Source: Thermoproteota archaeon (lineage in GTDB: Archaea; Asgardarchaeota; Njordarchaeia; Njordarchaeales; Panguiarchaeaceae). Taken from it: 64,000 nucleotides of DNA. Made by a program: the position numbers and the translations under genes. Below are positions 324 to 47,616 of the stretch, in pieces (position 1 is the stretch's first letter; each line of letters starts with the position of its first letter). Below the pieces are notes generated by a model. It saw only the letters and a program-made list of their open reading frames with translations, did not search any database and was not told where the DNA came from. The stretch is from positions 32,001 through 96,000 of the forward strand of contig JANJXX010000003.1 of NCBI GenBank assembly GCA_024720975.1, given 5' to 3'.

Positions 324-658
324 TAGAGAACACCAGCATTAGCAATTGATATATATAATGACATTACAAATTTTAGTATTAATGTATACGTTCGCTTACA
401 TTTGAACGAAAATTGAGAAAACATACACGACTTCAAAATGCTTTATTGTGTTGGACTTAAAAGTAGGATTGCATGAACTTTTGGACACTTTAAATTGTTC
501 TAGTATTGTATTCTGATCTAAGTCAGTTTAGTTGGTAAAATCTTGGCATCAACATATATTATTCGTATATATTTTGATTATGTTGATTATATAATTCCTC
601 TTAGAAATCTTAGAAATGGTGCATTCAAGTATCGTCTTCATTAGGTCCTGGTTTCTGG

Positions 659-26694: not shown

Positions 26695-26847
26695 GGAATC
26701 ACCAAACGAATAATTGTAATTCTAATCTTATCATGAACAAATCGGAGATTTAATATTGCGGTTTATCTGCATCCTACTTTGTTGTGCAGACTTACACCTG
26801 ACTGCAGGCTTCAGCAGAATTCTCAACAATATCTTGGAAGTAACTAG

Positions 26848-28230: not shown

Positions 28231-28237
28231 GTTTGGT

Positions 28238-29077: not shown

Positions 29078-29106
29078 CTAAGTTCTCCGCAATTTACCAA
29101 TTTTGA

Positions 29107-30987
29107 CTATTCAAGCCCAAGGCGATTTCTTATCTTTTTGACTAGTGGTATTGCGTCTTCTAAGCCTAGGTTCCTGAGGACTTCTGGTTTTGATACCCCG
29201 TATTCATCATATCCTATACCCTCGTAGTAAGCTTTCTTTAGTTCATTTACCTCTTGCTCATTAGCTTTCTTACCTTTGTGTGGGCCGCTCGGCAAAGGTT
29301 CATAAAACCTTGGTGGGTTGTCATCATGGACACGCGGATCCCATTGTATGTCTGGCCCTCCTAGCAATAGTAAAAGTCTTTGAATGTGTATTATGCGCGG
29401 CGCTGTCTGGTTTATCCATTCCTCCACAGTCATATTCCAGCCGGTAACTGAGTTTAGGAATTGTATTAATACATCAAAGTTTGTCCAGTACGTGAATGAA
29501 CATATCACTGCAGAATCAGTAAAAACGGCCTCTATCTCTCCCGCTGGTACTTTAGGATCACTGAAAGCCGCTGATGTATGATCTCCACCTTGGACGGATA
29601 CAGCATATCCTATTGGGGATGGGTAATCCTCTCCACTTCTTATTCCATGAGCGCCAACGGCTATACCCTTCACTTCGACAGCAAACCTTGCAGCGTCTAT
29701 GCCCTTGATTTTGCCGATTATCCTTGCAGCTCTGTGTGTTCCCTCGGCCAAAACGCCACCTATACCTTCTCTATTTGCTATCATTTGCATCAACTTAGCA
29801 AATGCATCGGTATCTCCCCACCTAAGCTCAAAGCCAACATCATTTTTGCTCAAAATTCCTTTCTCATATAACTCTGCTGCGAAGCCTAAAACATTTCCCG
29901 TGTTTATAGCATCAAGACCTAGTTCATCAGCTAGGTATGATAGGTATATTATCTCCTCAGGTTTGAATATTCCCAGGTTTGTCCCGAGATACGCCGCTAG
30001 TTCATAGTCTGGTGCGTCAGTCTTAGCACCCTTATATTTTCCATGACGTATGTAAGATATTTTCATGCAAGTAACTGGGCAACCATAATCACCCCAGTAC
30101 TTCTTTACCCAATAGCCCAACTCGAAGTTTACAACACTGATCTCTTTCCTATCATGCCACTCCTCTTGCCAGTTTCGAATAGGCTCACTTGAGGTTCTGT
30201 ACCCAAATTCATAGCCACCAGCTCCTGTGCCCCATGCTCTAAACGTTGTAATTTCTAGTAACTGATGTTGAATATCCCTAAGCAGTTTCTTATACTCCTC
30301 AAAATTTGCTACAGGTGGCAGAGGCCCATTTCCTTTGACAACAATTGCTTTTAAGTTCTTTGATCCCGCTACGGCACCGTATCCTCCATAACCTGCCGCG
30401 TGAACGAATTTTGCCATAATAGATGCAAATCTAACCTTTCTCTCTCCACCTCTTCCTATATAGAGAATCGCTGGTTCTTTCGGCAATCCACTTCTCCCTG
30501 CTAATTCTATCACCTCCCTGTGTGATTCACTCATTAACTCTGAGAGAAAGTCACTGGGACCTCTTCCCCAATATTTCCGAGCATCTTTAATATCGACATG
30601 GTCATCAACTAGTAAGATATACTTCGGCTCTTCCGCTCTTCCTCTGATAATCATTCCATCATAACCAGCTGCTTTGAGCTCAATAGCTACCTCACTTGAG
30701 ATTGTAGAACCCACCACACCATTGCTCTCAGGCGACTTGCCAGTTATACAGAGCTTTATTCCAGGATAGTAGCCTGAGAGAGGCCCTGTGAGAATCAACA
30801 ACAAATTCTCAGGACCAAGAGGATCTATTTCCTCCCACTTATCCCCAAGCTCTTTCCAGAGAATGTATGTTCCTAATCCTCGACCTCCGAGCCAATTCCT
30901 GTACACACCTTCTGAAAACTCCTTGACTCTTATCTTCTCCCTAGATAGATCTACTTCAAGGATCTTGCCAGTAAATCCATATGGCAT
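29107..30987 (-). CDS. aor: Tungsten-containing aldehyde:ferredoxin oxidoreductase family, large subunit
   Basis: GKILEVDLS, LGGRGLG, DPLGPEN, KSP, AAGYDG, GSKNLKAI, DYE, DELGLD, GGDH. Confidence 0.9.
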   Translation of the reverse strand: MPYGFTGKILEVDLSREKIRVKEFSEGVYRNWLGGRGLGTYILWKELGDKWEEIDPLGPENLLLILTGPLSGYYPGIKLCITGKSPESNGVVGSTISSEVAIELKAAGYDGMIIRGRAEEPKYILLVDDHVDIKDARKYWGRGPSDFLSELMSESHREVIELAGRSGLPKEPAILYIGRGGERKVRFASIMAKFVHAAGYGGYGAVAGSKNLKAIVVKGNGPLPPVANFEEYKKLLRDIQHQLLEITTFRAWGTGAGGYEFGYRTSSEPIRNWQEEWHDRKEISVVNFELGYWVKKYWGDYGCPVTCMKISYIRHGKYKGAKTDAPDYELAAYLGTNLGIFKPEEIIYLSYLADELGLDAINTGNVLGFAAELYEKGILSKNDVGFELRWGDTDAFAKLMQMIANREGIGGVLAEGTHRAARIIGKIKGIDAARFAVEVKGIAVGAHGIRSGEDYPSPIGYAVSVQGGDHTSAAFSDPKVPAGEIEAVFTDSAVICSFTYWTNFDVLIQFLNSVTGWNMTVEEWINQTAPRIIHIQRLLLLLGGPDIQWDPRVHDDNPPRFYEPLPSGPHKGKKANEQEVNELKKAYYEGIGYDEYGVSKPEVLRNLGLEDAIPLVKKIRNRLGLE

Positions 30988-30998
30988 CCGAGATCACT

Positions 30999-31532
30999 TT
31001 AATCAAACATTTTCTTAGACAACGCCAAGCTCTTTTCCCTAGGATCACCTGCAAATGTACTGAACACTGGACGATACAACCCCCTGTAAAGTTTTAGAGC
31101 ATTGTAGCCGGCTTCATTACATATCTTCACGCACTTAGGCTCGCCATTGCATAGATCACATATTACAACAGTCTTCTTGCCCTTCGGAATTCTCGGAACT
31201 TTCCCAGGACACGCTTCTATGCACTTACCACATCCAATACATTTCTGATCATCTACTATAACAGCGCCAGTCGCCTCATTGACACTAAGAGCCCCGACTG
31301 GACAACTTTTAACGCACGGATAATCTAAGCATTGAACACATAGATGCGGTACTGGAGCTCCATAAGCCTCCTCAAAAATCCTTATCCTCGATGCTTCTGG
31401 CCATATAGTGCCCTCATGTTCCAGAGCACAAACTACTTCGCATAGCCTACAGCCAGAGCAACTCCCATAGTCCACTAGTATCCATAATCTGTTTGCTTCT
31501 CTAACCAAGATAATCACCGACATTTTACGCAA
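30999..31532 (-). CDS. 4x[4Fe-4S] polyferredoxin partner of the AOR-family enzyme
   Basis: CSGCRLCEVVC, CVQC...C...CP, CIGCGKCIEACP, CDLC...C..IC. Directly upstream of the AOR gene. Confidence 0.9.
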   Translation of the reverse strand: MRKMSVIILVREANRLWILVDYGSCSGCRLCEVVCALEHEGTIWPEASRIRIFEEAYGAPVPHLCVQCLDYPCVKSCPVGALSVNEATGAVIVDDQKCIGCGKCIEACPGKVPRIPKGKKTVVICDLCNGEPKCVKICNEAGYNALKLYRGLYRPVFSTFAGDPREKSLALSKKMFD

Positions 31533-31629: not shown

Positions 31630-31645
31630 AAAAAAACAAAAATTA
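31630..31645 (-). terminator. Oligo-T archaeal terminator candidate after the giant repeat gene
   Basis: A-rich run just past the 31652 stop on +, i.e. T-runs on the - strand. Confidence 0.4.
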
Positions 31646-31651
31646 GTTCGC

Positions 31652-34600
31652 TTAGTAGTTACCGTTACCGTCTGGCTCCAAGGCATCTGGTTCTCCATCA
31701 TACGAATCCATAAAGCAAATACCTGATATCGTTGCATTTTCAACAGTGCTTGCATTAGGATGAGGTTTAATTAGCCACTCTCCTTGCGAATCTTTGTAGA
31801 GAACTATTACACGCGTGTTGCTGTAGTCATGAAATGTCCATTGTACAGTACTTATTAACAGCACAATCTTACCAGCGAGTATATTGGGGTTCCAATCTCC
31901 TGATACTAGATAGAATCCTGGTGTATAGTAGTAAATTACCCACCAGAACATTACTATTTCAACTTCAAAGCTCATTAGAACCATGGACCATGCATCACCA
32001 TCTTCAACACCTTCCCAAGGTGATAATAAACCGTATACGTCTTCCTTCTCTGGTCTACCGATTATTGTAAGGTATTCGTCATCGTACTGGCTATCAAGAT
32101 AGGCATTTCCAATGTAATCATGGAAGGCATCGGTCCATTCAATATCTATCGTGGCACTGAGATCTTTAGTGCCACCACCTCCAAACCAAATGGAGTACGA
32201 TGGCAGACTTGATGGAGCATCCTGTATCTGGGGTGATATGTAGTATTGCGCGGGGTCATGTGCTAGTGGATTAGAATTCTTATCTAGTGCTTTTAATTCT
32301 TCAGCCTCACTAGATTTGTATGAACCACTTGTCCAGCTTCCTGTTGATGGCGGATCATCACCAGTATCATTGTCTTCGAAGAATATTGGATCATCATCCC
32401 ATACTATCAACATTGAGTAATATACTAGCCATTCAGGACTCATAGGCACCTCTATCTTAAAGTATACTGTAACATACACCCATTGGTTGAAGTCTATGGC
32501 TGGGGAAAGCCCCGACATACCTTTGAATTTTATCGTATTTGCTAATGAGGAGGTATCGTATATTCCTGTGAAGTTTAGTTTGCTGAGTTTGACATCGCGT
32601 ATGTAGCATCCCCAAATCTTTAGATCAAACGTTACGTTTACTATGCTAAAGTTGTAGCAGTGATATTTTACCATGCTCCACAGCCAATCTTTAAGTGTGG
32701 TGTTTGAGAAACCGCGAAATCTATTTACTCTCCAAAGTCTGACTTGTACATCAAAGTAGCTATCTTTACCAGCTTCCATGGTTAGATTGTTTATATACAC
32801 CTCACCAAAGAAGTCATCTAATGTCCCAGAGGCTTGTTGGCCAGCTTTGCTACCAAAGTGATATCTTCCATTATAAACCAACAGAGCCTTAAAGTTCTCG
32901 AGTCCTACATTAAATCCTAAGCTACCCACGGCCTGGTGATAATTAAGGAGAATCCAGTTATAGTTCCACAGATTTATATTGCTTGGATTATTATTCCACA
33001 CTGGAACTGCATAATTAGCAGCATTTTCGATGCCTCCATATAGGTCATTTGTGTAGTACGTTCCATAACCTATCGGTACAAGAGCAACAGCATCGGCATT
33101 TATGCCATTGACGTAAGTTTTAACCATTGAGTTTAATGCCGTTTGAATGACATCGGGTGTTATGATGAACATGAATTTCGCAGATAGTGCTTCAAGATTG
33201 CTTATATTAACACCGAATATTTCAAGATCTATCTTAGTACTCGCCCATACGTTTATTGACCATCCTTTTAAGGTTGCATCTAGGAACTCTTGTAAGTATC
33301 TGTTCTTAAGAAATACTATCTCTATCGTTACATTCGAAGGGACCCCGGCCCTCAGATCCGCTACTCCAACTATTTTTTGTATTCCAAAAGCCGTGTATGT
33401 GTTAAGAGGCTCCATGTGTAGAATTGTCTCCATTCTAAGTATTTTTATGTTCAGAGAGCTTTGCACTGGTTCAATTAATCTTATGGTAGCAGAAAGCTTA
33501 TCCTCACCAATTACCTTCCAAGATAAGTTCTCGGTGCTGTATCTAATTACATTGTTTAATAAAGCCGATGCATCAACTTCACCCTGCATTAGGGCTTCGT
33601 AGTAATCGCTTACGCAGTATCGAGTGTTGTTATACTTGAAGTTTATTTCAAGTACTAAGTAGTTCGAATCAAAGAGCCTTATTCTTACTGAGCCCCAAAC
33701 GTCCATTGTAACATTCTTTTTCACGAGCAGATCCTGTAAAAATCCTTGAAGTGCAATTCTGTTTGACTTGAATATAGTTACGTTTACACCAAACGTTGTG
33801 TTTTTATCCAAACTTAATTCTAGGTATGAAATGAATACGTTAGCTACTTTGACGCCGCCATATAGTATATCCACACTTAGGTTGTTAACTTCTACAGGTA
33901 TCTTAGACTTGGACACAGTCACATTGATATTTAGCAGCGCTGTTGAATAATCTTCCCCTAGTACTGTTATACTTCCTACAGTCATATTGAACATACTCAA
34001 AACGGTTTCTTGAACACCTGAAGACTCTAGTTGTTCACTTACGTTCCAACCGAATACCTGTCTGAGTGATATGTTTTGGACGGTGATTCCAAAGAGGCTG
34101 ATTCTGCCAACTCTTGCGTCTACATTAATCTCGATGTTGTAGTTGTTTATTAAGTTCATGAGAAATTCTGCCGTTTTTGGTCTGTCCGCGAGCATTATAT
34201 ATGCGACTATTGTGGTATTACCTAAGGCCGCTTCGATCTTAGGAACATTTATTTTGGCCACTACAGTATTGTCTTTGATTAATTTAGCATTTATATCATA
34301 CGCTGCGAACGATATGTTGAATCTATTCATAAAGTCTACTTCCGCACTAAGAACATAATATTTAACTTGATCCTGCTGATCATAGAAGCTACCAACGTAG
34401 TTGAGACTCTTGTACGCGATAAGCGATTTAAAGTCTACTGGTACTATTCCGGCGCTCGCGTTTGTGGCCGACATGTTAAAGGTTAAACCTTTTAAGTCTA
34501 GAGACAAATTCAAGGTTAAATATTGTGTTGAGCTGTCAAATAGTTGGACCACTATAGATCCGTTAACATTAACAACAGCGTTATTACCCGCTAGATAATC

Positions 34601-37600
34601 TTCAATAAACTTTCTAAGTGCAGGCGAACCTTTGAAGATTGTAATATCTAAGGATATACTTGTTGGCTGAATGGGTGATAATACCATATTGTTGCCACGC
34701 AGTCTGGCGATCTTACCTAGATCATTGCTGACGTCAAGGTTCATTTCATGCACTTTAATATAAACAGGCGTGCTATTGATGCTAAGACTAACTGTTACGT
34801 TTGCTGTGTATTCATCCTCACCCCAAACTTTTACTTGATCTATACCATATAGTGGAAAGAGGCTAGGCGTTATAGTGTTTGCTCCAGTGTTTATTTGCTG
34901 CGAGAGATTCATTGCTTGACAGAGGTTGTAATCGAAGCTTAGGTCATCTATTTCCGCTCCTAGGAATAGCAAGTCCGTAGAACCTCTTATTGTTACATTT
35001 ATGACGCCTCCAGAGATTATACTTTCCAGCAAGTCCTTTGCTCCTGGATTATCGTATATAGCTAGGTGCACCGATATATTTGACCAGTTATCTGGAAGAA
35101 GTGTATATGGTCTGTTTATGAAGATCTTAAGCGCTTCATAACCTGAATTAGATATCGTGATTTTAGTATCCCCTATAGTTATAGGCGCCGCTATTGGGAT
35201 CTTCAGGGAGGCATTTACCTCTAGGTCATAATATTGTCTAGCACCAAAGGTTTTTTGAGAGATGCCGAGGAGCTTAAACAGATCTTGCAGAGGTATGAAA
35301 GTGTATGGCGAAACTACTGAGCCATTGGCTGAATTATAGGATTCAAGGCTTTGGTTTAATGAGAGTTCTATCGGAATTTCGTTTATCCTGTATCCAAATA
35401 CCATTAAATCGAGTTTTCCAGAGACGTTGACACAAAGTATTTTCCTTTCAACAATATCTCTAATGAGTTTCTCTAAGGGTAAATTGTTCGGTCTGTATAA
35501 GAGAACTATCGTAGCATTTACTTTCGAAGTTGCTCCGCGGGTCATTTCCGCACCTGGAACTAGAACGTAACCAATTGATCCAAAGTTGTTTTCGAGCGTT
35601 AAGTTTAGGTTATAAATAGATACGCTTATTGGAACTTCTGTGATGCTGATGGATACATTAACCTCGAACTTCTGTCCATCGTAGTTCGTCGAGACAAGCT
35701 GAGCATTGGTAACGTTTATCAATGGCGCGGCAGCGGTTGCTTGTGGGAGCTCTTGCTTTGATAGATCGGCGAAGATTTTACTTGCAAGTGATATCTGTGA
35801 TATATTTAGTCCAAATAAGGATATTGATGCTACACCGCTAATTGTTACATTGATGCATCTCTGCCGTAGCAATTCCTCTAGAAAACTTTGAGTTGCTGGT
35901 GTATCCTTAATTTCTAGATATATTTTCATGGTTACATTTTGACCAGGAGCCACACTATAGGAGCCTGCAGAACATATTTCCGCAACTGTATAATCTCTAT
36001 AAATTACCTTGAAGCTTAGATATTCAATTCCCAGAGAGACATTAATGAAATTGTTGAATACATACTCAATTAGGAGCGTTCTTGGTCCTGTTTGCTCAAA
36101 CCTCTTAAGCGCCAGGATATTCTCTATATTAAGGGGAACTATTGATTCCGATAATGAGTCTGAGGATGACGTGTAACTTACGTTTTTAAGACTTATTTGA
36201 ACGGTAAAGTTCCATTCTAAGAGTTTCAAATATGCAGACACATTTAAGTCAACTATGGCATCCCCCTCGATGAGATCACCAATTATTTCTGCTGTGACAT
36301 CCTTCTTGTAGAATAGTACTTCAATTACGATGTTCATGAAATCCTTACTAAGATCAAGTGAGTCTACAAATACAGCCTCTATTGCTTTCTCTCCTCCCTT
36401 GCTTAAAACTGCTTTTAAGTCCCACACAGTGACAGGTAGCATGTACTCATTCGTTAGGTTTAGCTTTATCAAGATTTTTGCTAAGGTGGCGTTTTCCATT
36501 AATGTATCTATGTATAACTTATTTATTTTGAGTCGCCCAAGTGGCAAAGGACTTGATCCAAGGCTCTGCTGTCCGACGAGTTCTGTGCTTAACCTGTATG
36601 CGAGATTATATGTGATATTAACATTTATCACTTCAATACCATAGAATGTTATGTTCCCGTAACCCTTGATGGATGCATTGAAAATGCTATTTTCTATTAG
36701 ATCCTTAAGAAACTTATAAGTCTCATTCCTGCTAAATACATACATGTCGACTATTAAACTGGATGTTTCTTTCGGTCGCACCAGAGCATCGCTTATGAAC
36801 ACTCTAGCAACGGTAAGTTGATCTCTGATTACTTCTATTGAGAATGGCCCAACAGCGGCATCTACTCCGTACGGGTTCTTGAATGAAATTGATGTATTGA
36901 AATGATATGCTTTTATACCATTGATTATTTCCTCGCCTATGTACTTAAATTTATCTATGCTTACAGCAAGATTTGGAAGGGCACTAGCTTCGATAATCGC
37001 TTGAGTATTAGGAATTGATGTTATGTTGCTTAGCTTGAATGGCAAGGTTACATTCACGCCAAATATTTCGGCTGTGACTTCTCCACTTATTACTAGCGAG
37101 TGAAGTTTACCCTCGATTATTCTCTTAAGAACCTCTGCTGTGTACTCTTTATTTGATTTGTGTATCTTTATGTAAGCTTTTATTTGTTTTCCGTTGACAG
37201 TATTATACAAATCTATTGTAGAGTTTGAGCTCAAAGTTATTGCTGGAAGACTCCAGCCAATAAGCGATATATTCACTTCATACTGAAATACCTTTACGGG
37301 CAAGTGATCAAGCCTAGCCGAAAGAGATATCTCTAGCAACGTCTCACTTTGATTGTCATAAATTATGGAAATATCCTCTAGATCTAAACCTCCTAGTCCA
37401 CCTATATCCTGATATCCACCCACGCCAACACTATCAGTTATATTCACTAGTAGTCTTTGGATAAACGTTATTTGTGGAAATTCTACCCCAAATATTTTGA
37501 TGCCCACTCTTCCATCGATTGAAGCATTTATAAGCCCATTACAAGCCAGATCAACCAAGAAGTTTCTCATAGCCTCCTTTCCTTTGAATATGTATATGCT

Positions 37601-40549
37601 TACGCTTAGGAGTGTTACTTTCTTGCTTTCCAGTATGTATCTATCTTTCAACATAATTTTTACTAGTCTCTGACCATCTCTGCTTAAGTATATGCTTGCA
37701 TCCCAAAATTCTACCGTTATTCCCATCGTATTGTTAAATGTTACATTTACATCAAATCTAAAGGCATCCTCACCATCAACCTTTGTCTCTCCTGCATATT
37801 TAAATCCCGCGATACGGAATAGATTACTCAACCTAATTGAAGACAGAACTGACTGTTGAGTTTCCTCGGATGACATATCTATGCGAAAGTCTTTGAATGT
37901 TATCACTCCAAAGTCCCAATCAAATAACGACAAAGCTAATGTGGCATCTACGTATAATTCACTAACGTTACCATAAACTAAGCTTCTAATCATATCTACA
38001 AATTCACTCGATTCGTTACGAAGCACTATTTTTAATATCACATCCTTGTTACCTGGTCCTCTTATTGGTTCCTCGAGTATAACTTGAACTGGCGGATTTA
38101 TGCAGTCCTTCCTTAGGCTCACATCAGCAATTAGAAGACTTATAACCATCGGTATAGGTATATCAACAACTGTCTTTATGCGTATTTCGATTCGATTTGG
38201 ATACTCGGTCACATCAAGGAGCTCAACACTTCCACCGCCATAAGTCGATGTTATATCTTTCGTTCCTAAGAGCGTTAATGAGTCCATTAGCGAAACTACA
38301 AAATTCGTCTGAAAGTCTTCTAGGTTTATCTCAACTCCACCTAAGCATGCGGTAATATTTCCACGTATGATCACATTAACTGCTTTTCCATGAAGTGTAT
38401 CGTTTAAGAATTGACGTGCAGATTCCGTCTTGAATATATGTACATTAACAGCAATCAATCTTGATTCGAACTGTGGGATTCGAGTGGATTGCGGTATGAC
38501 AATTTCTAGTGCAGGTTCAATACTATTCGGAGGATATACATAGAGGTCTCCAGGTCCTATGTCTAATTCTGCACCAAATGGGTTAGTTATTGTCGCGTTA
38601 ACATATATTGCATAGCCCTCTAGATTATTAATGACAACTTTACCAGCATATTTAATGCCACTAATCTTGTAGAACTTAGATGCTTCTCCTGCTACTGGGA
38701 CACTACCACTGGAGAGGGAAATCATGCCCCCTCCTGCGCGTATAGGGACGCTATAGAACATTCTGCTGAGAAACTTCATGTCAATTGAACCAATGAACAT
38801 TACATCACTAGTCCACGTGCCTTTGATGAAAGATTTTATAAATTCACCTATGTCTGGAGAGTCTTTTCTGATTCTTATCTCTATTGTTGGCTGGCAAGTT
38901 ACTAGTCCTGTTTCTGACTCTTGATTAAGGTCTATATTTCTGATTTTCACACTTCCTATAGTACTAGAGTTGTATACTATGTTACCTCTAATTTCATATA
39001 TTGCCAAGGGCATTCTTTTATAGGTCAGTGTAACAAGCGAGTTGACTATGAGGTATTTATCTGTTGCGGTTATATTATACTTCATATCAGTTATATTGAA
39101 CCCAGCCATAAGGCTCGATAAGTCGAACCCCTGCCTCATGAATTCGCCCATATCTACTGCAGGAGCACTCACTTGACTAGTAGAGAATGTAGATAGGTCT
39201 ATCTTTTCTATCCATACGCCAGCAAAGTATACATCGGCTGTACCTGCCAAAGAGGCACTAAATTCATTGTTGTAGAGTAACCGGTTTAAGAATGCGTGTA
39301 AGTTCTCATTGTCTATAAAATCTGCACTTATGCGGAATGACCTGTTCTCATTAGGACTTACCAAGATTTTCTCATCTATTCTTACATTAAGAATTGATTC
39401 ATCATTTTCCCCTAGTAGATCAATGTATAGTGGTCCAAAACCTATCGTCCAGTTTAATTTGTTCGTTAGTTCGATCGCTACATCAAATGAGTGCCTTACT
39501 TCACTTCCGATGATTTGTTCCCCTAAGTAGCTTATATCTAGATTGCTGATTCGAAGATTCTTACTCAGCAACTTAAATATCGCATCAAATATTGATGATG
39601 AAGCCCCTGGGGATTGCACTGGTGATAGAAAACCAGAGAATTGAGATATGTCAAATTTTACCTCTGAATTTTCGACCTCTATTCCAAATATCTTCAAGGA
39701 GAGACTTCCTCTTAGCTTGCCACTGACTTTACCCTCTTTTATTGCAAGATTCAGGAAGTTTTCCAGGGCGCTTCCCTTTATAAAACGCAGATGTATTGAT
39801 GTACTGAAGTTACCACTTGCTGAGTCTAGGATGTATTCCGGTATGGTTATATCAAGCACACGGCCGAGACTAGTTAGCAAGCTTAAACTGACATCCCTAA
39901 TTTCTACGGTACCCACTTGGAGTAACTCGGTTGGAACGAAGCCACTTACGAATACCTTTGCCTCGCAGAAGCTTTTTGTCTCGTTAGTGAGTTCGATCTC
40001 TTTGATCTCAAAACTTGGGAAGAAGCTCGAAATCGAGATCGATGCACCGCCTCCTGCCGGGCTTAGGTCAATTAGATCTTTTAACGAAATGTCTAATGGT
40101 ATTCTAATAGCCTCTATCACCCCAAATAGTGATATCGGATATTCAACCCTTATTTTAGCATCTATTTGTTGGGAGGCTAGGTATGTCCTTATTAGTCTCT
40201 TCGTTGCCTCAGTTTTATATAATTTTAATGATACCGTTGATATACCCAACTGACCTGGATCTAGTGTTATTGGACTAAGGTATCCAATACCTATTAACCC
40301 ATCCGTCTGCGAATCTAATACTTTGAAGTTTATTGCAGGAACCCTCGTAGGTAACCAGTGATTGTTTCTAATCAACATCTTTATGCTTAATATGCTAGAA
40401 TCTTTCGTCTCACCAACGAATCTTATGGAGAGGGGCTTGAAGTCCATACCAAGGAGGGGCACTACTGAAATTACATTTACGGCAATATTACCTATAATTA
40501 GCAATATTACAATCGTCAATACTTTTCTCTTAAAGGTCATATACTTCAC
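31652..40549 (-). CDS. Giant N-terminally anchored extracellular protein of ~18 tandem LEA_2/DUF3712-like repeats (start likely ATG 40540)
   Basis: 2965-aa uninterrupted ORF. One N-terminal TM after KRK, ~145-aa beta-rich repeats each with an amphipathic 'FLxxLL' helix followed by 'G.....IFG', many sequons, and an acidic/aromatic C-terminal domain. Confidence 0.8.
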   Translation of the reverse strand: MKYMTFKRKVLTIVILLIIGNIAVNVISVVPLLGMDFKPLSIRFVGETKDSSILSIKMLIRNNHWLPTRVPAINFKVLDSQTDGLIGIGYLSPITLDPGQLGISTVSLKLYKTEATKRLIRTYLASQQIDAKIRVEYPISLFGVIEAIRIPLDISLKDLIDLSPAGGGASISISSFFPSFEIKEIELTNETKSFCEAKVFVSGFVPTELLQVGTVEIRDVSLSLLTSLGRVLDITIPEYILDSASGNFSTSIHLRFIKGSALENFLNLAIKEGKVSGKLRGSLSLKIFGIEVENSEVKFDISQFSGFLSPVQSPGASSSIFDAIFKLLSKNLRISNLDISYLGEQIIGSEVRHSFDVAIELTNKLNWTIGFGPLYIDLLGENDESILNVRIDEKILVSPNENRSFRISADFIDNENLHAFLNRLLYNNEFSASLAGTADVYFAGVWIEKIDLSTFSTSQVSAPAVDMGEFMRQGFDLSSLMAGFNITDMKYNITATDKYLIVNSLVTLTYKRMPLAIYEIRGNIVYNSSTIGSVKIRNIDLNQESETGLVTCQPTIEIRIRKDSPDIGEFIKSFIKGTWTSDVMFIGSIDMKFLSRMFYSVPIRAGGGMISLSSGSVPVAGEASKFYKISGIKYAGKVVINNLEGYAIYVNATITNPFGAELDIGPGDLYVYPPNSIEPALEIVIPQSTRIPQFESRLIAVNVHIFKTESARQFLNDTLHGKAVNVIIRGNITACLGGVEINLEDFQTNFVVSLMDSLTLLGTKDITSTYGGGSVELLDVTEYPNRIEIRIKTVVDIPIPMVISLLIADVSLRKDCINPPVQVILEEPIRGPGNKDVILKIVLRNESSEFVDMIRSLVYGNVSELYVDATLALSLFDWDFGVITFKDFRIDMSSEETQQSVLSSIRLSNLFRIAGFKYAGETKVDGEDAFRFDVNVTFNNTMGITVEFWDASIYLSRDGQRLVKIMLKDRYILESKKVTLLSVSIYIFKGKEAMRNFLVDLACNGLINASIDGRVGIKIFGVEFPQITFIQRLLVNITDSVGVGGYQDIGGLGGLDLEDISIIYDNQSETLLEISLSARLDHLPVKVFQYEVNISLIGWSLPAITLSSNSTIDLYNTVNGKQIKAYIKIHKSNKEYTAEVLKRIIEGKLHSLVISGEVTAEIFGVNVTLPFKLSNITSIPNTQAIIEASALPNLAVSIDKFKYIGEEIINGIKAYHFNTSISFKNPYGVDAAVGPFSIEVIRDQLTVARVFISDALVRPKETSSLIVDMYVFSRNETYKFLKDLIENSIFNASIKGYGNITFYGIEVINVNITYNLAYRLSTELVGQQSLGSSPLPLGRLKINKLYIDTLMENATLAKILIKLNLTNEYMLPVTVWDLKAVLSKGGEKAIEAVFVDSLDLSKDFMNIVIEVLFYKKDVTAEIIGDLIEGDAIVDLNVSAYLKLLEWNFTVQISLKNVSYTSSSDSLSESIVPLNIENILALKRFEQTGPRTLLIEYVFNNFINVSLGIEYLSFKVIYRDYTVAEICSAGSYSVAPGQNVTMKIYLEIKDTPATQSFLEELLRQRCINVTISGVASISLFGLNISQISLASKIFADLSKQELPQATAAAPLINVTNAQLVSTNYDGQKFEVNVSISITEVPISVSIYNLNLTLENNFGSIGYVLVPGAEMTRGATSKVNATIVLLYRPNNLPLEKLIRDIVERKILCVNVSGKLDLMVFGYRINEIPIELSLNQSLESYNSANGSVVSPYTFIPLQDLFKLLGISQKTFGARQYYDLEVNASLKIPIAAPITIGDTKITISNSGYEALKIFINRPYTLLPDNWSNISVHLAIYDNPGAKDLLESIISGGVINVTIRGSTDLLFLGAEIDDLSFDYNLCQAMNLSQQINTGANTITPSLFPLYGIDQVKVWGEDEYTANVTVSLSINSTPVYIKVHEMNLDVSNDLGKIARLRGNNMVLSPIQPTSISLDITIFKGSPALRKFIEDYLAGNNAVVNVNGSIVVQLFDSSTQYLTLNLSLDLKGLTFNMSATNASAGIVPVDFKSLIAYKSLNYVGSFYDQQDQVKYYVLSAEVDFMNRFNISFAAYDINAKLIKDNTVVAKINVPKIEAALGNTTIVAYIMLADRPKTAEFLMNLINNYNIEINVDARVGRISLFGITVQNISLRQVFGWNVSEQLESSGVQETVLSMFNMTVGSITVLGEDYSTALLNINVTVSKSKIPVEVNNLSVDILYGGVKVANVFISYLELSLDKNTTFGVNVTIFKSNRIALQGFLQDLLVKKNVTMDVWGSVRIRLFDSNYLVLEINFKYNNTRYCVSDYYEALMQGEVDASALLNNVIRYSTENLSWKVIGEDKLSATIRLIEPVQSSLNIKILRMETILHMEPLNTYTAFGIQKIVGVADLRAGVPSNVTIEIVFLKNRYLQEFLDATLKGWSINVWASTKIDLEIFGVNISNLEALSAKFMFIITPDVIQTALNSMVKTYVNGINADAVALVPIGYGTYYTNDLYGGIENAANYAVPVWNNNPSNINLWNYNWILLNYHQAVGSLGFNVGLENFKALLVYNGRYHFGSKAGQQASGTLDDFFGEVYINNLTMEAGKDSYFDVQVRLWRVNRFRGFSNTTLKDWLWSMVKYHCYNFSIVNVTFDLKIWGCYIRDVKLSKLNFTGIYDTSSLANTIKFKGMSGLSPAIDFNQWVYVTVYFKIEVPMSPEWLVYYSMLIVWDDDPIFFEDNDTGDDPPSTGSWTSGSYKSSEAEELKALDKNSNPLAHDPAQYYISPQIQDAPSSLPSYSIWFGGGGTKDLSATIDIEWTDAFHDYIGNAYLDSQYDDEYLTIIGRPEKEDVYGLLSPWEGVEDGDAWSMVLMSFEVEIVMFWWVIYYYTPGFYLVSGDWNPNILAGKIVLLISTVQWTFHDYSNTRVIVLYKDSQGEWLIKPHPNASTVENATISGICFMDSYDGEPDALEPDGNGNY
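32525..40447 (-). repeat. Protein-level tandem repeat array (~18 units of ~145 aa, alternating A/B types)
   Basis: Manual alignment. Odd units recur as F/IKY.GE....F.N..G....GP (e.g. FKYAGE, FKYIGE, IKYAGK). Even units recur as E...I.I....(L/I)PV.V..L. No obvious DNA-level identity. Confidence 0.7.
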
Positions 40550-40550
40550 C

Positions 40551-43500
40551 TTAAAGATCTAATTCTTCCGATTCGAATATCTCCAAGAACTCTTTCTCAA
40601 TCTCTTCATAGCTTATTTCTCCTGTCACTGGCGCGGCTTTTTCATGGACACTAAACCTACTTCTTGCAATGAACTTTCTGAGAGCTACAAAAATCGCCCC
40701 AACACAACTAAACGTACCAAGAACAATAAGACCATACATTAAACCGGCCTCACGAGCGGGTTTCACTTCAATCAATTTACTAAGCGATTTATCTTTGTAG
40801 TGCCCATTTCCAAGCACTTCGACTTTGATTAAATGCTCCCCATGCGAATCAGGAACCCATATTATCTCTAGAGGTCCATTATAGATCGTTCTCACGAGTA
40901 GCCTATCACCGACAATTATCGACACAATAACACCAGCAACAGGCTCATTATCATTGTCCGTAATATAAACTTTTATCCTAGCTGCATTCCCAATTTCCAA
41001 TACGCTAGGCACATATACCTGGGCGTTCAAATCTTCTTCAAGAATAGTCAATTGCGTTTCAAATGAGCTGCTAGCATGAATACTCGTTGCTGAGCTTTGG
41101 ATAATGAGTACATACTCGCCTGGTTTAAAGCTCATCCTTACTATAATTTTGGCCGTTCCATTTTCATCTGTTATTGTCGTTACCACTGGGTATTTCACAT
41201 TACTACCATTTGAGAGATAAATTGATATAGGTATTCCCGCTAGAGTCTTATTATCTTGATCGATAAGGATAACATAAATTTCTATGAAGTCGCCGTATTC
41301 TACCATTTGGGGTGATAGTGTAGCGATTATCTCGGTAGAAATCGCTTCTATAACCAACGTGATCTTAGGACTATATACTAGCTCATAGAAGTTGCTCATA
41401 AGCTGTATCTCTAGGTAGTATGTTCCTGGTAGAAAATCTACATAGAATGGATAAGCAAGTCGTATTTGTGGTTTTAGAGTACCATTGTAAATGGTGTACA
41501 AGCCGCTGATAACGACGAATACTTGACCTGAATCATCTATAACTTCTTCTCCGTCGTTATCCGTAAGGAGTATTAATAGCTCCGAACTGTGTTGATAAGT
41601 TACAGTCCATGTGTAACTATTTGAGTATACCATCGCCCTTTCTTTGCATACATACACGTAGTACGTATAGCAAGCTTCACCAACATAGAGGTCACTCCAA
41701 ACTTTGACTATTATTGCTATTTGTTGGAGCGGAATGAACATATTCGTATTGACACTAAGAACAGCTGTGCCATCTTTTACCTCCAGGATTTTACACAGAA
41801 CAGTATTTCCTGAAACAATTGTTATATTAGCTATCCCTTGCACTATTGAGCAATAATCGTCATCAAAGGCATGTATTTTTATTAATAAGGAATCTCCCCA
41901 TTCAATGATACTTGCATTAGTACTTATATCGACGCCTTTGAGAACATCCTTCTCGACAATTAAATTGCGCGCCAGTGAAGCTTCATAAAACTTGTCACTT
42001 TCATAGATCATTATAATGTATACGTACTCGCCAGGAGTTAACCATTTCGGATAGCTACTACTGAGAATACGTACTACTAATCGACCGGATAACGAATAAT
42101 TTCCTCCTAGCAAATAGATGTCATCATTTATTACTACATACACCTCGGCGTATGCGTTCACTGGCACACCGAGTTCGGTTGATACATTAGCGCAGATTGT
42201 ACCACCATCAGAGAATACAATTGTAGCGTCGCTTGATTGAATTACCAAGTGAGCTTTGCTTACAGAAACCGCTACAAAGATCTCTGATGGATAATAACTC
42301 CTCACACTGTCCCCATCAAATGCTACACGAATTTCATATTCGCCCTCGGGCAGATTCACAGCCCAGTTTATTATAGCCTTACCAGATCGGTCTGTATACC
42401 CTTCAGCTAGGATTTCTCCTCCGTACGATAGATACACATATGCGTTGGATACAGGATCTCCGAACATATCCACTAGGATTATCTGTGCCACGACTGTCTC
42501 GCTCCAAACCGGCGAATTTGTGCTTAGTGAAATTGTTATGCTCGTTAGTAACCAAACATGTACCCAAACAATGTTAGACTTTGATTTAAATACAGTGTCA
42601 TTGAGACAAAACTCGAGTCTGAGGTAACCCGCTGGCGCGTGCAATGATGCCAGATCCACAACCACTTGACTATTCTCTCCATTATAATATATTTCAATCG
42701 TATGCATTAAGCCACTTGAGTTATACACATTGATGTATACTTTTTGTCCTTCAAGGGGGATAATGCCTCCATCGTTTCGATATGCACTAAATACTATCGT
42801 GATAGTCTCGTTAGCTAGGGCATTTATTTCCGATGCATTGAATGAGAAAATTACCTCTTCCTCCCTAATGGAAAGGCGCAAACAATATACAGAGAATGAG
42901 GAGTCACTTTCCCTATCATTATCCAGATCATAAATTGTTATCTCAATGTCGCAATCCCCAGCACGCAGTGGAGTGTCTATGATTAGAAGCAGCTCGAATA
43001 GAGTTCCATTTGTGTACAATACTTGAGCTTGTTTCACTAGCACTATACTATAAATCTTTATTACTATTGTTTCATTAACTCCGCTTGGATCACTCACAGA
43101 TATTCTAATACTTAGGCCCTCGTCAGCCTCAATAATACCATCTCCAGTGCCACTACTAAGATACTCTGATACACTTACATTGTGTATAACCGGTCCGTCG
43201 ATGTCATCATCTAGAATTTCCCCGTATGTTATGAATGAGCGTGCTACGGCAGCATCTCCCTGCCAATCATTATCTTTATCGTATGCTATTACTTCAAGAG
43301 AGAATGCAGACCCGACATAGTTTATCCAAATATTCCTCGGGATTATAATATATGCCGTATTTCCATTCCAGTAAATTGAATTGTTGTTGTATGTTATTGC
43401 TACATTGTACTTTTGGAAGTACACTATAAATGTCACAGAGCCTACTCCACTTTCTTGATCAGTTATAACGGCCCATATAACTAAGTCCTCGTTACTTGAG

Positions 43501-45611
43501 TCATATATCGTTATATAATTTCCAGGGAAGACTATTTCAGGCGGGTTTGGATCATCATCAACAAGCTCGACATAGAATCTTTGACTTATAACAGCATTGC
43601 CAGCTTTGTCGATACACTTTGCCTCCCAATACAGTTTCTTCCCTACATGTGGTTTCCATTCACTTGCGGATATCACTATCCGAAACTCTCCACTTATATA
43701 ACTTGCTACAATCCAATCACTCCAGTTTGTGCCACCATAACTATATCGTATTAGCACGCGCTCAACACCACTTATCTGGTCGCTGCACACAACACTAAGA
43801 ACTATATTATTAGTCGCATTGTCTAGGAACACTGTTCCAATTTGAGGTGAATAGCTAAGAATTCTTGGGGCTATTGTGTCTATCTGAATCGGTCCTTTTC
43901 TAGCGCTCTCATTCTCATTACCGGCGCGATCTACTGCGACGACACTTATGCTCCAAACACCCGACGGCAATCCAATGGTTGCATAGAGTTGCTCGTATGG
44001 ACCATACCAGTTAAAAAGAGAACCACTGCTATAGTTATAGACTCGTACCATATAGCATCTTATGCCACTCATACTATCCGTACTTTGACTCCATGCTATG
44101 TATACATTACTAGTATTGTACCATTTCGTGGAACTAGGTTGGGGATTTATGTTTATTATCTCAGGTTTCGTTGGTGGTACAAAATCTACGTTTATTCCAT
44201 GCTCCCAACAAAGCTCCCAAACTTTAGTTCTACTTAGATCAGTTCTCCAAGAGAGCAACCCATTTATAAACTCGAATATTGTTGTGGGTTTATAAGTTCT
44301 TACAACATACCAAATATCCGAAATACTGATACTCAGCGAATCTCCAATGCCATCGCCATCTTGATCATCATCACTTGAATCATATAGATCCCATAGAACA
44401 GCGGCGACACTACTTGCGACATCAAAATCATTGCGTGAGTTATCAGAATCGTAAAGCGTTTCTAAATCGCGAAGTTCAAAGTTTTCACTGCTTATGTAAT
44501 AGCGCTTTATAACTTCTGAGAGAAATATCGACCAACCAACAACCCAAGCTGTTTTTGGGTCTGTGTGAACATTAAAGTTATAGTTGCGCTCAAAGCTAGG
44601 TAATACGCTGCGTTGTGCCAGCAAAAATTGTGCAAAGGCCATGAAGAACTCCGTGTAGTTTGTAGCAGCTGCTGCCCATAGTCTTTTATCGGTAGTGTTA
44701 TAGAAATAAACGCTAGTTTGGGCTGGGTATGTTATATTTAATCCGGGTAAGCTGCTTTCACCTAAGACGCTGATTGCAAAATCTCTAGCTAGCATTGCAA
44801 ATAACATGATCTCTCCAGCTGGTCCTCCAAGAACATATACAATGGATTGAGGGGGTGTTACATAGCTAACGGTTGTGGCATCATTCTTATAAAGTTGTTG
44901 CCCGGATATTGGATCGGTCCAATAAGAACCTTGGATATATAGACTGTACGCACCTCCACCTAAATTGGAGTAGTCGTTATACATTCGGTATAGGTAAACT
45001 CTGTTGCTCGGATCGTATATAGCAACAACATTGGATATATCTGTATAAAATTGAAGAACAGGGTCTCTATTGCTAAGCTCCCCCCAATCAAACGCATCGT
45101 AGACTACACAGAAAGCTCCTTGACTGTCGGTTCTCGTAGATATTATAAATTGCCCACTGGGAGTATAACCGTCGCTATAGGGCTCTCCAGAGTCCTGATC
45201 CCAAACGTCCACTAAGATGCCCTGTATAGTTTTATACGCACCAGAGGATGTCCGTGAATATGGATCTCTGACTTTGACATAACCATAAAGGCGAACATCG
45301 CCGCTAGGAATACTAGGTGTTCCTGAGGTTATGTAGTAGTATAGATAGGCTAATATGACTGGATCCGTGTTTACCCTAGCTTTAAGTATATCTGCCTCGT
45401 TGGCATGCTTGAGCTTTGTTTTGGAGTGCGATACCACAATTACATTTTGTGCATTCTTGGTACCTCCTCTGTGAGCATCGGTATGCAAATCATCTGCTGC
45501 TTTGGAATCCACCCGCAGGTTTTTTATGTTTGCACTAATGATTGGATCTACTATCACTGCTAAAAATATTATTGAGACGAGCATAAACCTAATTATTTGA
45601 ATTTTGTCCAA
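40551..45611 (-). CDS. Large cell-surface protein: transthyretin-like and degenerate zincin-like head, FN3/Ig-like stalk, C-terminal TM anchor
   Basis: Signal peptide, VDVWDQD...TDSQGAF, VAAVLWDLYD, repeated D.xPP/DDD..P modules with A.DRAGN and AYDKDND motifs, TD..G.A Ig-like repeats, then TM, RK and an acidic tail. Confidence 0.75.
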   Translation of the reverse strand: MDKIQIIRFMLVSIIFLAVIVDPIISANIKNLRVDSKAADDLHTDAHRGGTKNAQNVIVVSHSKTKLKHANEADILKARVNTDPVILAYLYYYITSGTPSIPSGDVRLYGYVKVRDPYSRTSSGAYKTIQGILVDVWDQDSGEPYSDGYTPSGQFIISTRTDSQGAFCVVYDAFDWGELSNRDPVLQFYTDISNVVAIYDPSNRVYLYRMYNDYSNLGGGAYSLYIQGSYWTDPISGQQLYKNDATTVSYVTPPQSIVYVLGGPAGEIMLFAMLARDFAISVLGESSLPGLNITYPAQTSVYFYNTTDKRLWAAAATNYTEFFMAFAQFLLAQRSVLPSFERNYNFNVHTDPKTAWVVGWSIFLSEVIKRYYISSENFELRDLETLYDSDNSRNDFDVASSVAAVLWDLYDSSDDDQDGDGIGDSLSISISDIWYVVRTYKPTTIFEFINGLLSWRTDLSRTKVWELCWEHGINVDFVPPTKPEIININPQPSSTKWYNTSNVYIAWSQSTDSMSGIRCYMVRVYNYSSGSLFNWYGPYEQLYATIGLPSGVWSISVVAVDRAGNENESARKGPIQIDTIAPRILSYSPQIGTVFLDNATNNIVLSVVCSDQISGVERVLIRYSYGGTNWSDWIVASYISGEFRIVISASEWKPHVGKKLYWEAKCIDKAGNAVISQRFYVELVDDDPNPPEIVFPGNYITIYDSSNEDLVIWAVITDQESGVGSVTFIVYFQKYNVAITYNNNSIYWNGNTAYIIIPRNIWINYVGSAFSLEVIAYDKDNDWQGDAAVARSFITYGEILDDDIDGPVIHNVSVSEYLSSGTGDGIIEADEGLSIRISVSDPSGVNETIVIKIYSIVLVKQAQVLYTNGTLFELLLIIDTPLRAGDCDIEITIYDLDNDRESDSSFSVYCLRLSIREEEVIFSFNASEINALANETITIVFSAYRNDGGIIPLEGQKVYINVYNSSGLMHTIEIYYNGENSQVVVDLASLHAPAGYLRLEFCLNDTVFKSKSNIVWVHVWLLTSITISLSTNSPVWSETVVAQIILVDMFGDPVSNAYVYLSYGGEILAEGYTDRSGKAIINWAVNLPEGEYEIRVAFDGDSVRSYYPSEIFVAVSVSKAHLVIQSSDATIVFSDGGTICANVSTELGVPVNAYAEVYVVINDDIYLLGGNYSLSGRLVVRILSSSYPKWLTPGEYVYIIMIYESDKFYEASLARNLIVEKDVLKGVDISTNASIIEWGDSLLIKIHAFDDDYCSIVQGIANITIVSGNTVLCKILEVKDGTAVLSVNTNMFIPLQQIAIIVKVWSDLYVGEACYTYYVYVCKERAMVYSNSYTWTVTYQHSSELLILLTDNDGEEVIDDSGQVFVVISGLYTIYNGTLKPQIRLAYPFYVDFLPGTYYLEIQLMSNFYELVYSPKITLVIEAISTEIIATLSPQMVEYGDFIEIYVILIDQDNKTLAGIPISIYLSNGSNVKYPVVTTITDENGTAKIIVRMSFKPGEYVLIIQSSATSIHASSSFETQLTILEEDLNAQVYVPSVLEIGNAARIKVYITDNDNEPVAGVIVSIIVGDRLLVRTIYNGPLEIIWVPDSHGEHLIKVEVLGNGHYKDKSLSKLIEVKPAREAGLMYGLIVLGTFSCVGAIFVALRKFIARSRFSVHEKAAPVTGEISYEEIEKEFLEIFESEELDL

Positions 45612-45819
45612 GTTTCATCGCATGACCACACTCCCCATAAAAGTTTCTGAAAACTTTATCCTAAAGATTTAAAAGCCAGAGGGGTTAAACTAAGAAATTT
45701 CAATAAAACTGTTAAATTTCCGTATAAATCTCGGCTAGTATCTAACATATAATTATAGTAATTTGTGTTTATAAATATTTATCTCAGCGTTTCGAAGGAA
45801 GTATTACGCCAGTAGGATT

Positions 45820-47616
45820 CTATACTAGAATGGCTAATAAACTCAGCAGTACTGATAGGGCGAATGATAGTAGCATGTCTCTGATAAACACTTTAACATA
45901 GACGATAGATAGTCCCTTAATTGCTGCCGCATTGTTTCTACCTAAAACACGTAGATTAATAACTTTTGCCTTGTTTGACACTTCTGCCTCAGTCAAATTT
46001 TCAATGGCCTTCCTAACGGTTTGTATTGTGCATTCCTTAAGGATTTCGCCCTTTTTCTCACCTAATATTGTGTACAGCTTATTTGCGTCCAACGCGCAGA
46101 CTGTGTGCGTGTCTGTAGATAGTAGTTCTACCGACTCAGCTCCAAACTCCTCTCTTATTTTCTCTTTCATGTCTAAGTAGAACTTGGGATTTATATTGTT
46201 GGAGTCATAGGTAATGAGTATATGCAATTTTTGTCCTATTTTCATCGCAATTGCTACAATGCCGAGTCCTCCCAGACCATCTTTAGGCTTGACTTGTTCG
46301 CATTTACACTGATCCACCCCGATCATGAACTTCTTTGGTTCACAGACTTTAGTTATAGCATTTCTAATGAGTTTTCCAAGCATGTGATACTCTTTACTAT
46401 CAATGTCAAGCACTAAACCTTCCACTGGTTCGGATAGAGAATTATGGGCATCTACCAGAAATACATTCTTTCCTGACATATGACCAAGTTCCATTGCAAA
46501 ATAACCAAGTGACGTTTCTAAATCATCCGAATTCTGAGGAGCGTTAGAGGCTAGCAGATATGTTTGATTTCCGAGTGATAATTTAGTTACATGCAAGGAT
46601 CCATTATTAAATATTTCAGGTTCACATATTTCATCGTACCAAAAATTCTCATCAAAGATGCACTTTATTTCCCGCTCGATTACATCCAAGAGCTTGAATT
46701 GCTCCGCCAGGGACGGTAAATTGGCATCATGTGAGGATGCACCCTTGAGAAACAAAGTGGGAATTTTTAGCCTATTCTTCATCTCTCTGAAGAGTATCTC
46801 CGGAAAATCCGATGAACCGGAGTTAAGCAAGGGTCCTGGGTGTATTTGAGCCCCAACGATTGCGAATAGTGGCTCTTTTCTATCTTTGGATCTGAAAGCT
46901 GTTATTGCCACTGGTATTTCGCGATCGATGCTCATTCTCTCTAGTATTTTCTCGAACTCATCACGTTTTCGATCAAGTTTAAGCATTAGGAATGCTCTTA
47001 CGAGCTTCAGTGTGCCAATTTTATTTGTAGTCGGCCATATTTTTTCATTGGAGTAAATTATTGCAAGCGCGGTAAGTATTACCAGAGCGATTAAGAGTGT
47101 CACCTTTGCGAAAGGTGTAATAAAATTCAAAGTTGGGTTATACTGTGCTGTTAAACAATTGGTGCTTCGGATTAATGATAAACTTATGATGGAGACATTC
47201 GAAAAGACAAAGAAGGCCGACTTCCAAATGCCCCAATTTACCAATCCTAGCACAATATATAGCTCCAGGACTGATAGTATGCAGAGAAAGATTGGACAAA
47301 ACCACGCACGCAACAGAGTTAAAATTAATATGAGGTTAAGGAAACCTAGTAGTATATTAGAAATGGCAAGCGCTCTTCTACGATTTAGAGCTCTTACCTC
47401 TTGTGGTAGCTTTAATAATAGTAATGGCATGAAAACAGCTGCAACTGTTAGGATATAGACATCTATTGATGTGACATCTACCCTGTAAAGATTCCATAGA
47501 ATTACAAAGTATATAGAGAACTGAGCCATTAGTGTGAGAAGAGGAGATTTAAGACTAGGGAAAAGAAACATGAGGCGATACAAACGATTGATCTCTTTCA
47601 TCTCATTTTCGCTCAA
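45820..47616 (-). CDS. DUF2070-family archaeal membrane protein
   Basis: N-terminal TM bundle, then HPGP, G.SSHD.N, DAHNS, DSNN and STDTH motifs. Confidence 0.8.
   Translation of the reverse strand: MSENEMKEINRLYRLMFLFPSLKSPLLTLMAQFSIYFVILWNLYRVDVTSIDVYILTVAAVFMPLLLLKLPQEVRALNRRRALAISNILLGFLNLILILTLLRAWFCPIFLCILSVLELYIVLGLVNWGIWKSAFFVFSNVSIISLSLIRSTNCLTAQYNPTLNFITPFAKVTLLIALVILTALAIIYSNEKIWPTTNKIGTLKLVRAFLMLKLDRKRDEFEKILERMSIDREIPVAITAFRSKDRKEPLFAIVGAQIHPGPLLNSGSSDFPEILFREMKNRLKIPTLFLKGASSHDANLPSLAEQFKLLDVIEREIKCIFDENFWYDEICEPEIFNNGSLHVTKLSLGNQTYLLASNAPQNSDDLETSLGYFAMELGHMSGKNVFLVDAHNSLSEPVEGLVLDIDSKEYHMLGKLIRNAITKVCEPKKFMIGVDQCKCEQVKPKDGLGGLGIVAIAMKIGQKLHILITYDSNNINPKFYLDMKEKIREEFGAESVELLSTDTHTVCALDANKLYTILGEKKGEILKECTIQTVRKAIENLTEAEVSNKAKVINLRVLGRNNAAAIKGLSIVYVKVFIRDMLLSFALSVLLSLLAILV

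Follow-up and report, generated by a model that had tools for sequence, protein, structure and literature searches.

Two giant genes kept side by side in a Njordarchaeia archaeon and its relatives encode a pseudo-peptidase-headed Ig-like stalk and an LEA_2 rod, putative long surface fibres

This work reports that two neighbouring giant genes, here named A and B, on the minus strand of a 64,000-nt stretch of contig JANJXX010000003.1 (the window) form a unit conserved among related genomes, and that this unit probably makes two very long membrane-anchored envelope or adhesion fibres, from one mRNA in this lineage. A carries a predicted pseudo-peptidase head on an immunoglobulin (Ig)-like stalk and B a chain of LEA_2 domains, and the pair is best described as fibres of known folds with one new tip domain, for which cooperation is plausible. 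The host is an uncultured Njordarchaeia archaeon with an assembly of 1.36 Mb (81% complete), and the sequencing runs of the same study carry the label 'hot springs metagenome'. Njordarchaeota are an Asgard lineage (NCBI taxonomy; PMC12411855), the placement of which has been debated, and genome reduction has been described in Njordarchaeia, with a sister clade proposed as symbiotic (PMC12411855). Together A and B take up 1.03% of the assembly, and B is the largest open reading frame (ORF) in it. Both had been pointed out in an earlier note on this DNA, and the ORF list and a reading of the sequence confirm them as real, on the minus strand and at the positions given there (Table 1).

Conservation and junction of the gene pair

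The order A then B, on one strand, was found in six sequence-distinct lineages (the window, L027/28, L029/30, G004:C5, G001:C123 and L059), and in every A orthologue with downstream DNA available, B comes next. The identities to the window pair (A/B) are 56/62%, 54/61% and 32/41%, namely that A and B diverge in parallel. In three lineages the pair is flanked by rhomboid-DUF2070 on one side and ferredoxin-aldehyde:ferredoxin oxidoreductase (AFOR) on the other, in L059 by the rhomboid gene alone, and in G004 by TatD/NTP-transferase and L13e/STAND NTPase genes, as shown by Pfam. A guess from ORF sizes that the G004 flanks were syntenic with those of the window was discarded when Pfam showed different genes, which strengthened the argument for linkage. 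To judge from these three different contexts, the pair appears to have moved, or its surroundings to have changed, without separating. Conservation across relatives, which the earlier note had proposed as a check, is found in six lineages and three contexts. Within the 14-genome class, the B tip occurs only in families f1 (5/5) and f2 (1/1), and the pseudo-peptidase giants occur in the same six genomes.

At the junction, the TAA stop of A (40553-40551) is directly followed by the Shine-Dalgarno (SD) motif GGTGA (40550-40546), five bases and an ATG at 40540. The GTG at 40549, from which the earlier note had counted 2965 aa for B, falls inside the SD motif itself; in two orthologous junctions, which read TGA-GGTGA-TATAT-GTG, B begins at the offset of ATG 40540; and the genome-wide peak of GGTG lies at -10 from the start codon (66/865 ORFs versus a background of ~3), exactly the position of GGTG before ATG 40540. 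These observations place the start of B most likely at ATG 40540, giving 2962 aa and a gap of 10 nt, so that the giant ORF of the earlier note stands with a corrected start. Its account of the A stop running into the SD motif of B holds as described, while the coupled translation that it drew from this is compatible with the sequence and no more. The two genes share a strand, the 10-nt spacer is too short for a promoter and the SD motif lies at the usual distance, and a short spacer with an SD motif likewise occurs in L027, L029 and L059. Over the four lineages with SD-led spacers, these measure 10, 10, 10 and 24 nt, with GGTG at -10 to -12, and the 10-nt form with the stop abutting the SD motif is shared by three lineages that are ~60% identical to one another. 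SD-led short spacers are also common throughout this genome.

For the T-rich terminator noted earlier after B, the candidate is a T5-G-T7 run, and T-runs also lie downstream of the orthologues. For A, the start at TTG 45611 is plausible but not certain, ATG 45584 being the alternative. Two short reading frames lie just upstream of this TTG (45612-45640, minus strand), a mini-ORF reading ATG-CGA-TGA behind a GGAG and another of 9 codons. Raw reads of three metatranscriptomes from the same study, together with one contig set, were mapped, at a depth too low to address co-transcription: just 8 reads, all of one run, fell on the 15.5-kb stretch, mostly on the ferredoxin gene and the B 3′ end, and 0 at the junction.

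Table 1. Positions of the A and B genes, their parts and nearby signals in the window
Feature	Position	Strand	Description and basis
Gene A	40551..45611	(-)	1686 aa (P0001); C-anchored Ig-like stalk with predicted pseudo-peptidase head; ORF and translation
A signal-peptide-like N-terminus	45531..45611	(-)	aa 1-27; Lys3/Arg8, hydrophobic core, ISA before Asn28; hydropathy
A head	44187..45359	(-)	aa ~85-475; predicted transthyretin-like sandwich and thermolysin-fold domain without zinc ligands; AF2 model and motif alignment
A stalk	40752..44174	(-)	aa ~480-1620; ~11 divergent Ig-like/prealbumin-like domains; count estimated from length
A C-terminus	40554..40745	(-)	predicted membrane helix aa 1623-1645, basic patch, 41-aa acidic tail ending EEFLEIFESEELDL
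Junction	40538..40553	(-)	A TAA stop, GGTGA SD motif, B ATG start; 10-nt gap
Gene B	31652..40540	(-)	2962 aa (P0002); N-anchored LEA_2 rod with conserved tip; ORF and Pfam
B signal-anchor helix	40445..40525	(-)	aa 6-32; two invariant Asn (N-x3-N); hydropathy and N-termini of five homologues
B repeat array	32942..40423	(-)	aa ~40-2533; 17-18 divergent ~150-aa LEA_2-like repeats; iterated HMM
B C-terminal tip	31655..32941	(-)	aa 2534-2962; last ~270 aa without detectable family
B aromatic segment	31907..31951	(-)	MFWWVIYYYTPGFYL; aa 2864-2878, near distal end; invariant
T5-G-T7 run	31630..31642	(-)	9 nt after B stop; candidate archaeal oligo-T terminator
Intergenic region upstream of A	45667..45775	(-)	TATA-like boxes TTTATAAA (45775-68) and TTTTAAAT (45674-67); candidate promoter

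Architecture of proteins A and B

The topology of both proteins was read from hydropathy only. It gives A a signal-like segment at residues 2-29, a single helix at 1623-1645 and then the acidic tail, and B one strong hydrophobic segment at residues 6-32, soon after which the repeats begin. With a single anchor helix in each, A would be held at its C-terminus and B at its N-terminus, leaving the A N-terminus and the B C-terminus as distal ends, and the opposite anchoring proposed in the earlier note is upheld on this ground. These distal ends are the best-conserved parts of both proteins. The A orthologues likewise begin with a hydrophobic segment, and the signal peptide would be cleaved off. 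B has 75 N-x-S/T sequons, compared with 28.6 ± 4.9 in shuffled sequences, and ranks 9 of 755 ORFs in sequon density, while A has 24 where 13.3 are expected; this excess fits glycosylated surface proteins.

Pfam detects Big_1 (44.3 bits, cut-off 34.9) and MG4 (29.2 bits, cut-off 24.7) in A, and along the stalk weak matches to Big_13, Big_1, CarboxypepD_reg, MG4 and SpaA, the Pfam hits there being to Ig-like families only; internal repeats were also detected. An exhaustive search with the head (A residues 30-520) found 61 relatives, only ~12 of which span the whole head. The AlphaFold2 (AF2) model of the head, built from a 39-sequence alignment with a mean predicted local distance difference test (pLDDT) score of 84.8, places a transthyretin-like sandwich N-terminal to a domain that matches thermolysin (1kei/4tln) with Z 17.1, a root-mean-square deviation of 3.1 Å over 241 residues and a Foldseek probability of 1.00, the match covering residues 6-316 of the 316-residue chain; fungalysin (4k90) follows with Z 14.3. 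In most of the distant relatives of the head, HEYGH stands ~30 residues ahead of the block that was matched, with AWxEGWA and LWDxxD-DDQDGDG coming after it, and the HEYGH and EGW motifs of the active relatives align to HEYTH/EGWSDF of fungalysin. HExxH is absent anywhere in A: the aligned site reads MAFAQ (MAYSQ, YAYGQ or MAYGQ in the orthologues), and the Glu serving as third zinc ligand is also lost, A having AWVVGWS and the orthologues V or N at this position, where the active relatives have AWxEGWA. A sister family of the class holds ~500-aa homologues with intact HEYGH/HEYAH and Glu, and Pfam has no model for the family of these active relatives.

Taken together, the thermolysin fold of the model, the lost motifs and the intact sister-family homologues indicate that the A head is a thermolysin-fold pseudo-peptidase, in which both zinc His, the catalytic Glu and the third ligand have been lost, and that it appears to derive from an active secreted metallopeptidase family. 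At the other end of A, the tail (residues 1646-1686; 40554-40676) ends in the acidic motif EEFLE[IV]FESEEL[DE]L, which four orthologues conserve and two others have in a looser acidic form; a cytoplasmic partner may dock there. Anchoring of A by the PGF-CTERM/archaeosortase route was considered and rejected, as KPAREAG instead of PGF precedes the helix and a 41-aa tail follows it.

In B, Pfam matches DUF3712 (PF12505) in three stretches with 65.6 bits (cut-off 24.1) and LEA_2 (PF03168) with 29.1 bits (cut-off 25.4), and an iterated search with a profile hidden Markov model (HMM) resolved 17 repeats of ~150 aa over residues 105-2533, the membrane helix standing directly before the first LEA_2 domain, as in type II proteins. 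The repeats are 10-25% identical in pairs and show a weak period-2 signal; a MAFFT alignment of 18 of them is poor, 2/18 match DUF3712 as single repeats, and their profile reaches the plant LEA14 structure 1xo8 in the PDB weakly (E 0.24). The profile matches assign B to the LEA_2 superfamily. Among 301 Asgard genomes sampled, 12 others have ORFs of 320-970 aa matching DUF3712, and B is the extreme of this series of Asgard LEA_2 arrays.

The B tip is the best-conserved part of the protein (51-71% identity among five full-length relatives). It has no match in Pfam, a PDB profile search or the ESM Atlas; a search for further relatives added no more than three fragments, all truncated and all of this family, and a word-index search with the rod returned the B family only. 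An AF2 model of the C-terminal part, built from five sequences, is of low confidence (pLDDT 40), with a strand-strand-helix pattern in the last repeats. Within the tip, MFWWVIYYYTPGFYL is the 15-mer of strongest interfacial hydrophobicity in every B paralogue and ranks 3 among 937 ORFs of the genome, on the Wimley-White interfacial scale; the other top-ranking 15-mers of the genome resemble transmembrane-helix sequence. The two invariant Asn of the B helix stand four positions apart in a GN-x-x-VN motif, which all paralogues share, including solitary ones. Polar pairs in membrane helices usually drive helix association, and B may therefore oligomerise through this Asn pair.

Proposed role and alternative readings

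Based on these findings, we propose that A and B could form a long-range contact or adhesion layer of the cell, both fibres probably being N-glycosylated. A would be exported by its signal peptide and held by its C-terminal helix, and its ~11 Ig-like domains would carry the head some tens of nanometres from the membrane; with both zinc His, the catalytic Glu and the third ligand lost, the dead head could bind a ligand without cutting it. B would be a type II protein, the N-terminal helix of which remains in the membrane, while its 17-18 tandem LEA_2 beta-sandwiches would make a rod of ~60-80 nm if extended, ending in the ~430-aa tip with the invariant aromatic segment as the likely contact site. 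Since the ribosome-binding site of B lies directly behind the A stop, the two proteins would be made together.

Several observations weigh against this proposal of a conserved two-gene unit. A and B are ~100 nt apart in G004 and G001, where the spacer has a TTTATAAA-like TATA box and a T7 run and B may be under a promoter of its own. Solitary B paralogues stand between unrelated genes in L031 (3400 aa), G001:C78 and G005:C257, so that A and B are not linked wherever either occurs; unlinked homologues had been named in the earlier note as grounds for giving up the pairing, and here the A-B order is kept in six lineages while some B paralogues do occur alone. In three other Asgard families, the LEA_2 arrays (915-970 aa) lie among housekeeping genes and no A-like partner adjoins them. 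Because an extra pseudo-peptidase giant, A′ (~2700 aa), was gained after B in G004, G001 and L060, the locus also has the look of a variable surface-gene island. The pair-bearing lineages are close kin, and the repeated adjacency does not count as six independent events. Finally, neither the B repeats nor the tip gave a confident model of their fold.

The earlier note had gone further and read the pair as a two-component apparatus, an adhesin or capture arm plus a 'conduit'; nothing found shows physical cooperation or a conduit, and the solitary B paralogues weaken the claim. A true apparatus, in which A and B bind each other head-to-tip or through their membrane helices, for example as capture arm and rod, is in our estimate rather unlikely, even though the pair persists through changed genomic context with a tight junction in four lineages, the distal ends are the most conserved in both proteins, a pseudo-peptidase giant is found in each of the six class genomes that have B, and helix packing would be compatible, with two invariant Asn in the B helix and an A helix rich in Gly and small residues. 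However, the B paralogues retain the same tip and Asn motif without an adjacent A, the helix and tail of A are its least conserved parts (30-37%), the fibre lengths suggested by domain count differ (~45 versus ~70 nm) and the tips need not meet, and one common ancestor explains the co-occurrence. Co-folding of the A head with the B tip gave no answer, the fold of the B tip being itself uncertain, and carries no weight either way. The opposite reading, that A and B are functionally unrelated neighbours, independent surface genes in a variable island held together by shared ancestry and compact spacing, seems improbable to us. It would be in keeping with the other giant surface-type ORFs of the genome, with the extra giant gained at the locus in some lineages, with the close kinship of the pair-bearing lineages and with the commonness of short SD-led spacers in this genome, but order and strand have been kept down to 32-41% identity and through at least two flank changes, and the 10-nt stop-SD junction is kept in three ~60%-identical lineages.

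A bolder reading makes B an extracellular lipid-transfer bridge, with the LEA_2 grooves as a hydrophobic track from its own to a partner membrane, the aromatic tip inserted there and A holding the partner. A conserved lipid-binding groove has been predicted for LEA-2 domains, and fungi have chains of several such domains without gaps (bioRxiv 10.1101/2021.03.12.435176); the invariant tip segment is among the most membrane-interface-seeking 15-mers of the genome; and the genomes of Njordarchaeia are reduced, a sister clade having been proposed as symbiotic (PMC12411855). Set against this, LEA-2 lipid transfer is itself a prediction, the repeats, at 10-25% identity, show no conserved groove motif and no confident repeat model, the aromatic segment may be a buried hairpin, and the heavy sequon load along the rod suggests a glycan-coated spacer, so that we regard the bridge as very unlikely. 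Equally doubtful, at the far end of what we would consider, is an intercellular tether, in which a ~70-nm B rod inserts its aromatic tip into the partner membrane and the A head grips a partner protein, possibly passing lipids along the LEA_2 chain; if true, it would be a prokaryotic counterpart of the eukaryotic membrane contact-site bridges, built of the same domain as Tag1, Vac7 and TMEM106B.

Known systems, surroundings and significance

The earlier note could match its inferred apparatus to no described archaeal system, and this is right only as regards the pairing and the B tip: both proteins belong to known fold families and N-anchored multi-LEA_2 proteins have been described (bioRxiv 10.1101/2021.03.12.435176). 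The fungal multi-LEA-2 type II proteins, such as yeast Tag1 and an Ustilago maydis protein with 15 gapless LEA-2 domains, reach thousands of residues, whereas the archaeal norm is tandem LEA-2 proteins of ~311 aa with two domains, PDB 3BUT being one such domain (bioRxiv 10.1101/2021.03.12.435176). Like the fungal DUF3712 proteins, B has an N-terminal membrane helix followed by a gapless LEA_2 tandem; unlike them, it is archaeal, has 17-18 domains, would be located at the cell surface instead of the vacuole lumen, and has the ~430-aa relative-less tip and a conserved upstream partner gene. With the archaeal two-domain LEA-2 proteins, B shares the superfamily, the N-terminal anchoring and a predicted extracytoplasmic location, but it has ~9 times the domains, no lipobox cysteine and the extra tip.

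The A head resembles the thermolysin-like gluzincins (MEROPS M4 thermolysin, vibriolysin and ProA; M36 fungalysin) in its two-lobed fold, yet with MAFAQ for HExxH and Val for the third-ligand Glu it is not an enzyme of that family. As in the giant bacterial Ig-repeat adhesins (BAP family, PMC4647330; Mobiluncus adhesin, PMC10619420), a long Ig-like stalk appears to carry a distal binding module, and the genes in question rank among the largest of their genomes. Unlike these adhesins, A is archaeal and, by its hydropathy, would sit in the membrane by a C-terminal helix, with an acidic tail in the cytoplasm, where the adhesins are fixed to a cell wall; it also has a dead metallopeptidase as head and the gene for an LEA_2 rod next to its own. 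Among archaea, slaA-slaB of the Sulfolobales is a two-gene envelope operon, and the tetrabrachion stalk of Staphylothermus is membrane-anchored with its protease module far from the cell. Compared by description, the A-B pair resembles them in its co-encoded, putative envelope parts and a long stalk with a distal protease-type module; it differs in that A and B each have their own predicted anchor, nothing points to a lattice, and the protease module is inactive.

Upstream of A in the window, on the same strand, lie DUF2070 (45820-47616) and a rhomboid intramembrane protease gene (47697-48407); in four lineages a rhomboid gene precedes A on its strand, and in L059 it adjoins A directly. Since rhomboids cut single-pass proteins of the orientation of A, and the A helix is Gly-rich, one may speculate that the rhomboid sheds A from the cell surface. 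Directly downstream of B, window positions 24928-31532 (minus strand) hold genes for ferredoxin, aldehyde:ferredoxin oxidoreductase, aldo-keto reductase, an FGase-like protein and urocanase, in an order kept in two relatives; this block looks like amino-acid (histidine) degradation, unrelated to the A-B pair. The A′ loci (L025:5148-13306 of G004:C5, L060:1355-9454 and L012:3-1196) have KEYAK for HEYGH and retain the third-ligand Glu, and A′ of G004 is split into two ORFs of 1901 and 825 aa with a 25-nt overlap, possibly through a frameshift or through faulty assembly. Elsewhere in the genome, other giant surface-type ORFs include one of 1988 aa outside the window (G000:C23:114048-120011, L048) with a gingipain-type Peptidase_C25 domain at residues 226-593 (E 1e-56) and one of 1566 aa with Big_7 (C29), long proteins with a protease-type domain being a theme of this small genome. 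A 1717-aa ORF without a Pfam match (G000:C23:27188-32338, L049) ends within window positions 1-338.

If the pair proved to be only a glycan-coated coat, its description would be a useful annotation and not a discovery. As it stands, the locus shows an active secreted metallopeptidase family that apparently gave rise to a non-catalytic head borne on a long stalk, and B is the longest archaeal LEA_2 chain found in this analysis, an architecture otherwise known from fungi, with a conserved 430-aa tip without relatives outside the lineage, the structure of which is worth solving. The pair offers concrete candidates for the outermost envelope and cell-contact structures of an uncultured lineage, and cell contact in Njordarchaeia bears on models of symbiosis and eukaryogenesis (PMC12411855).

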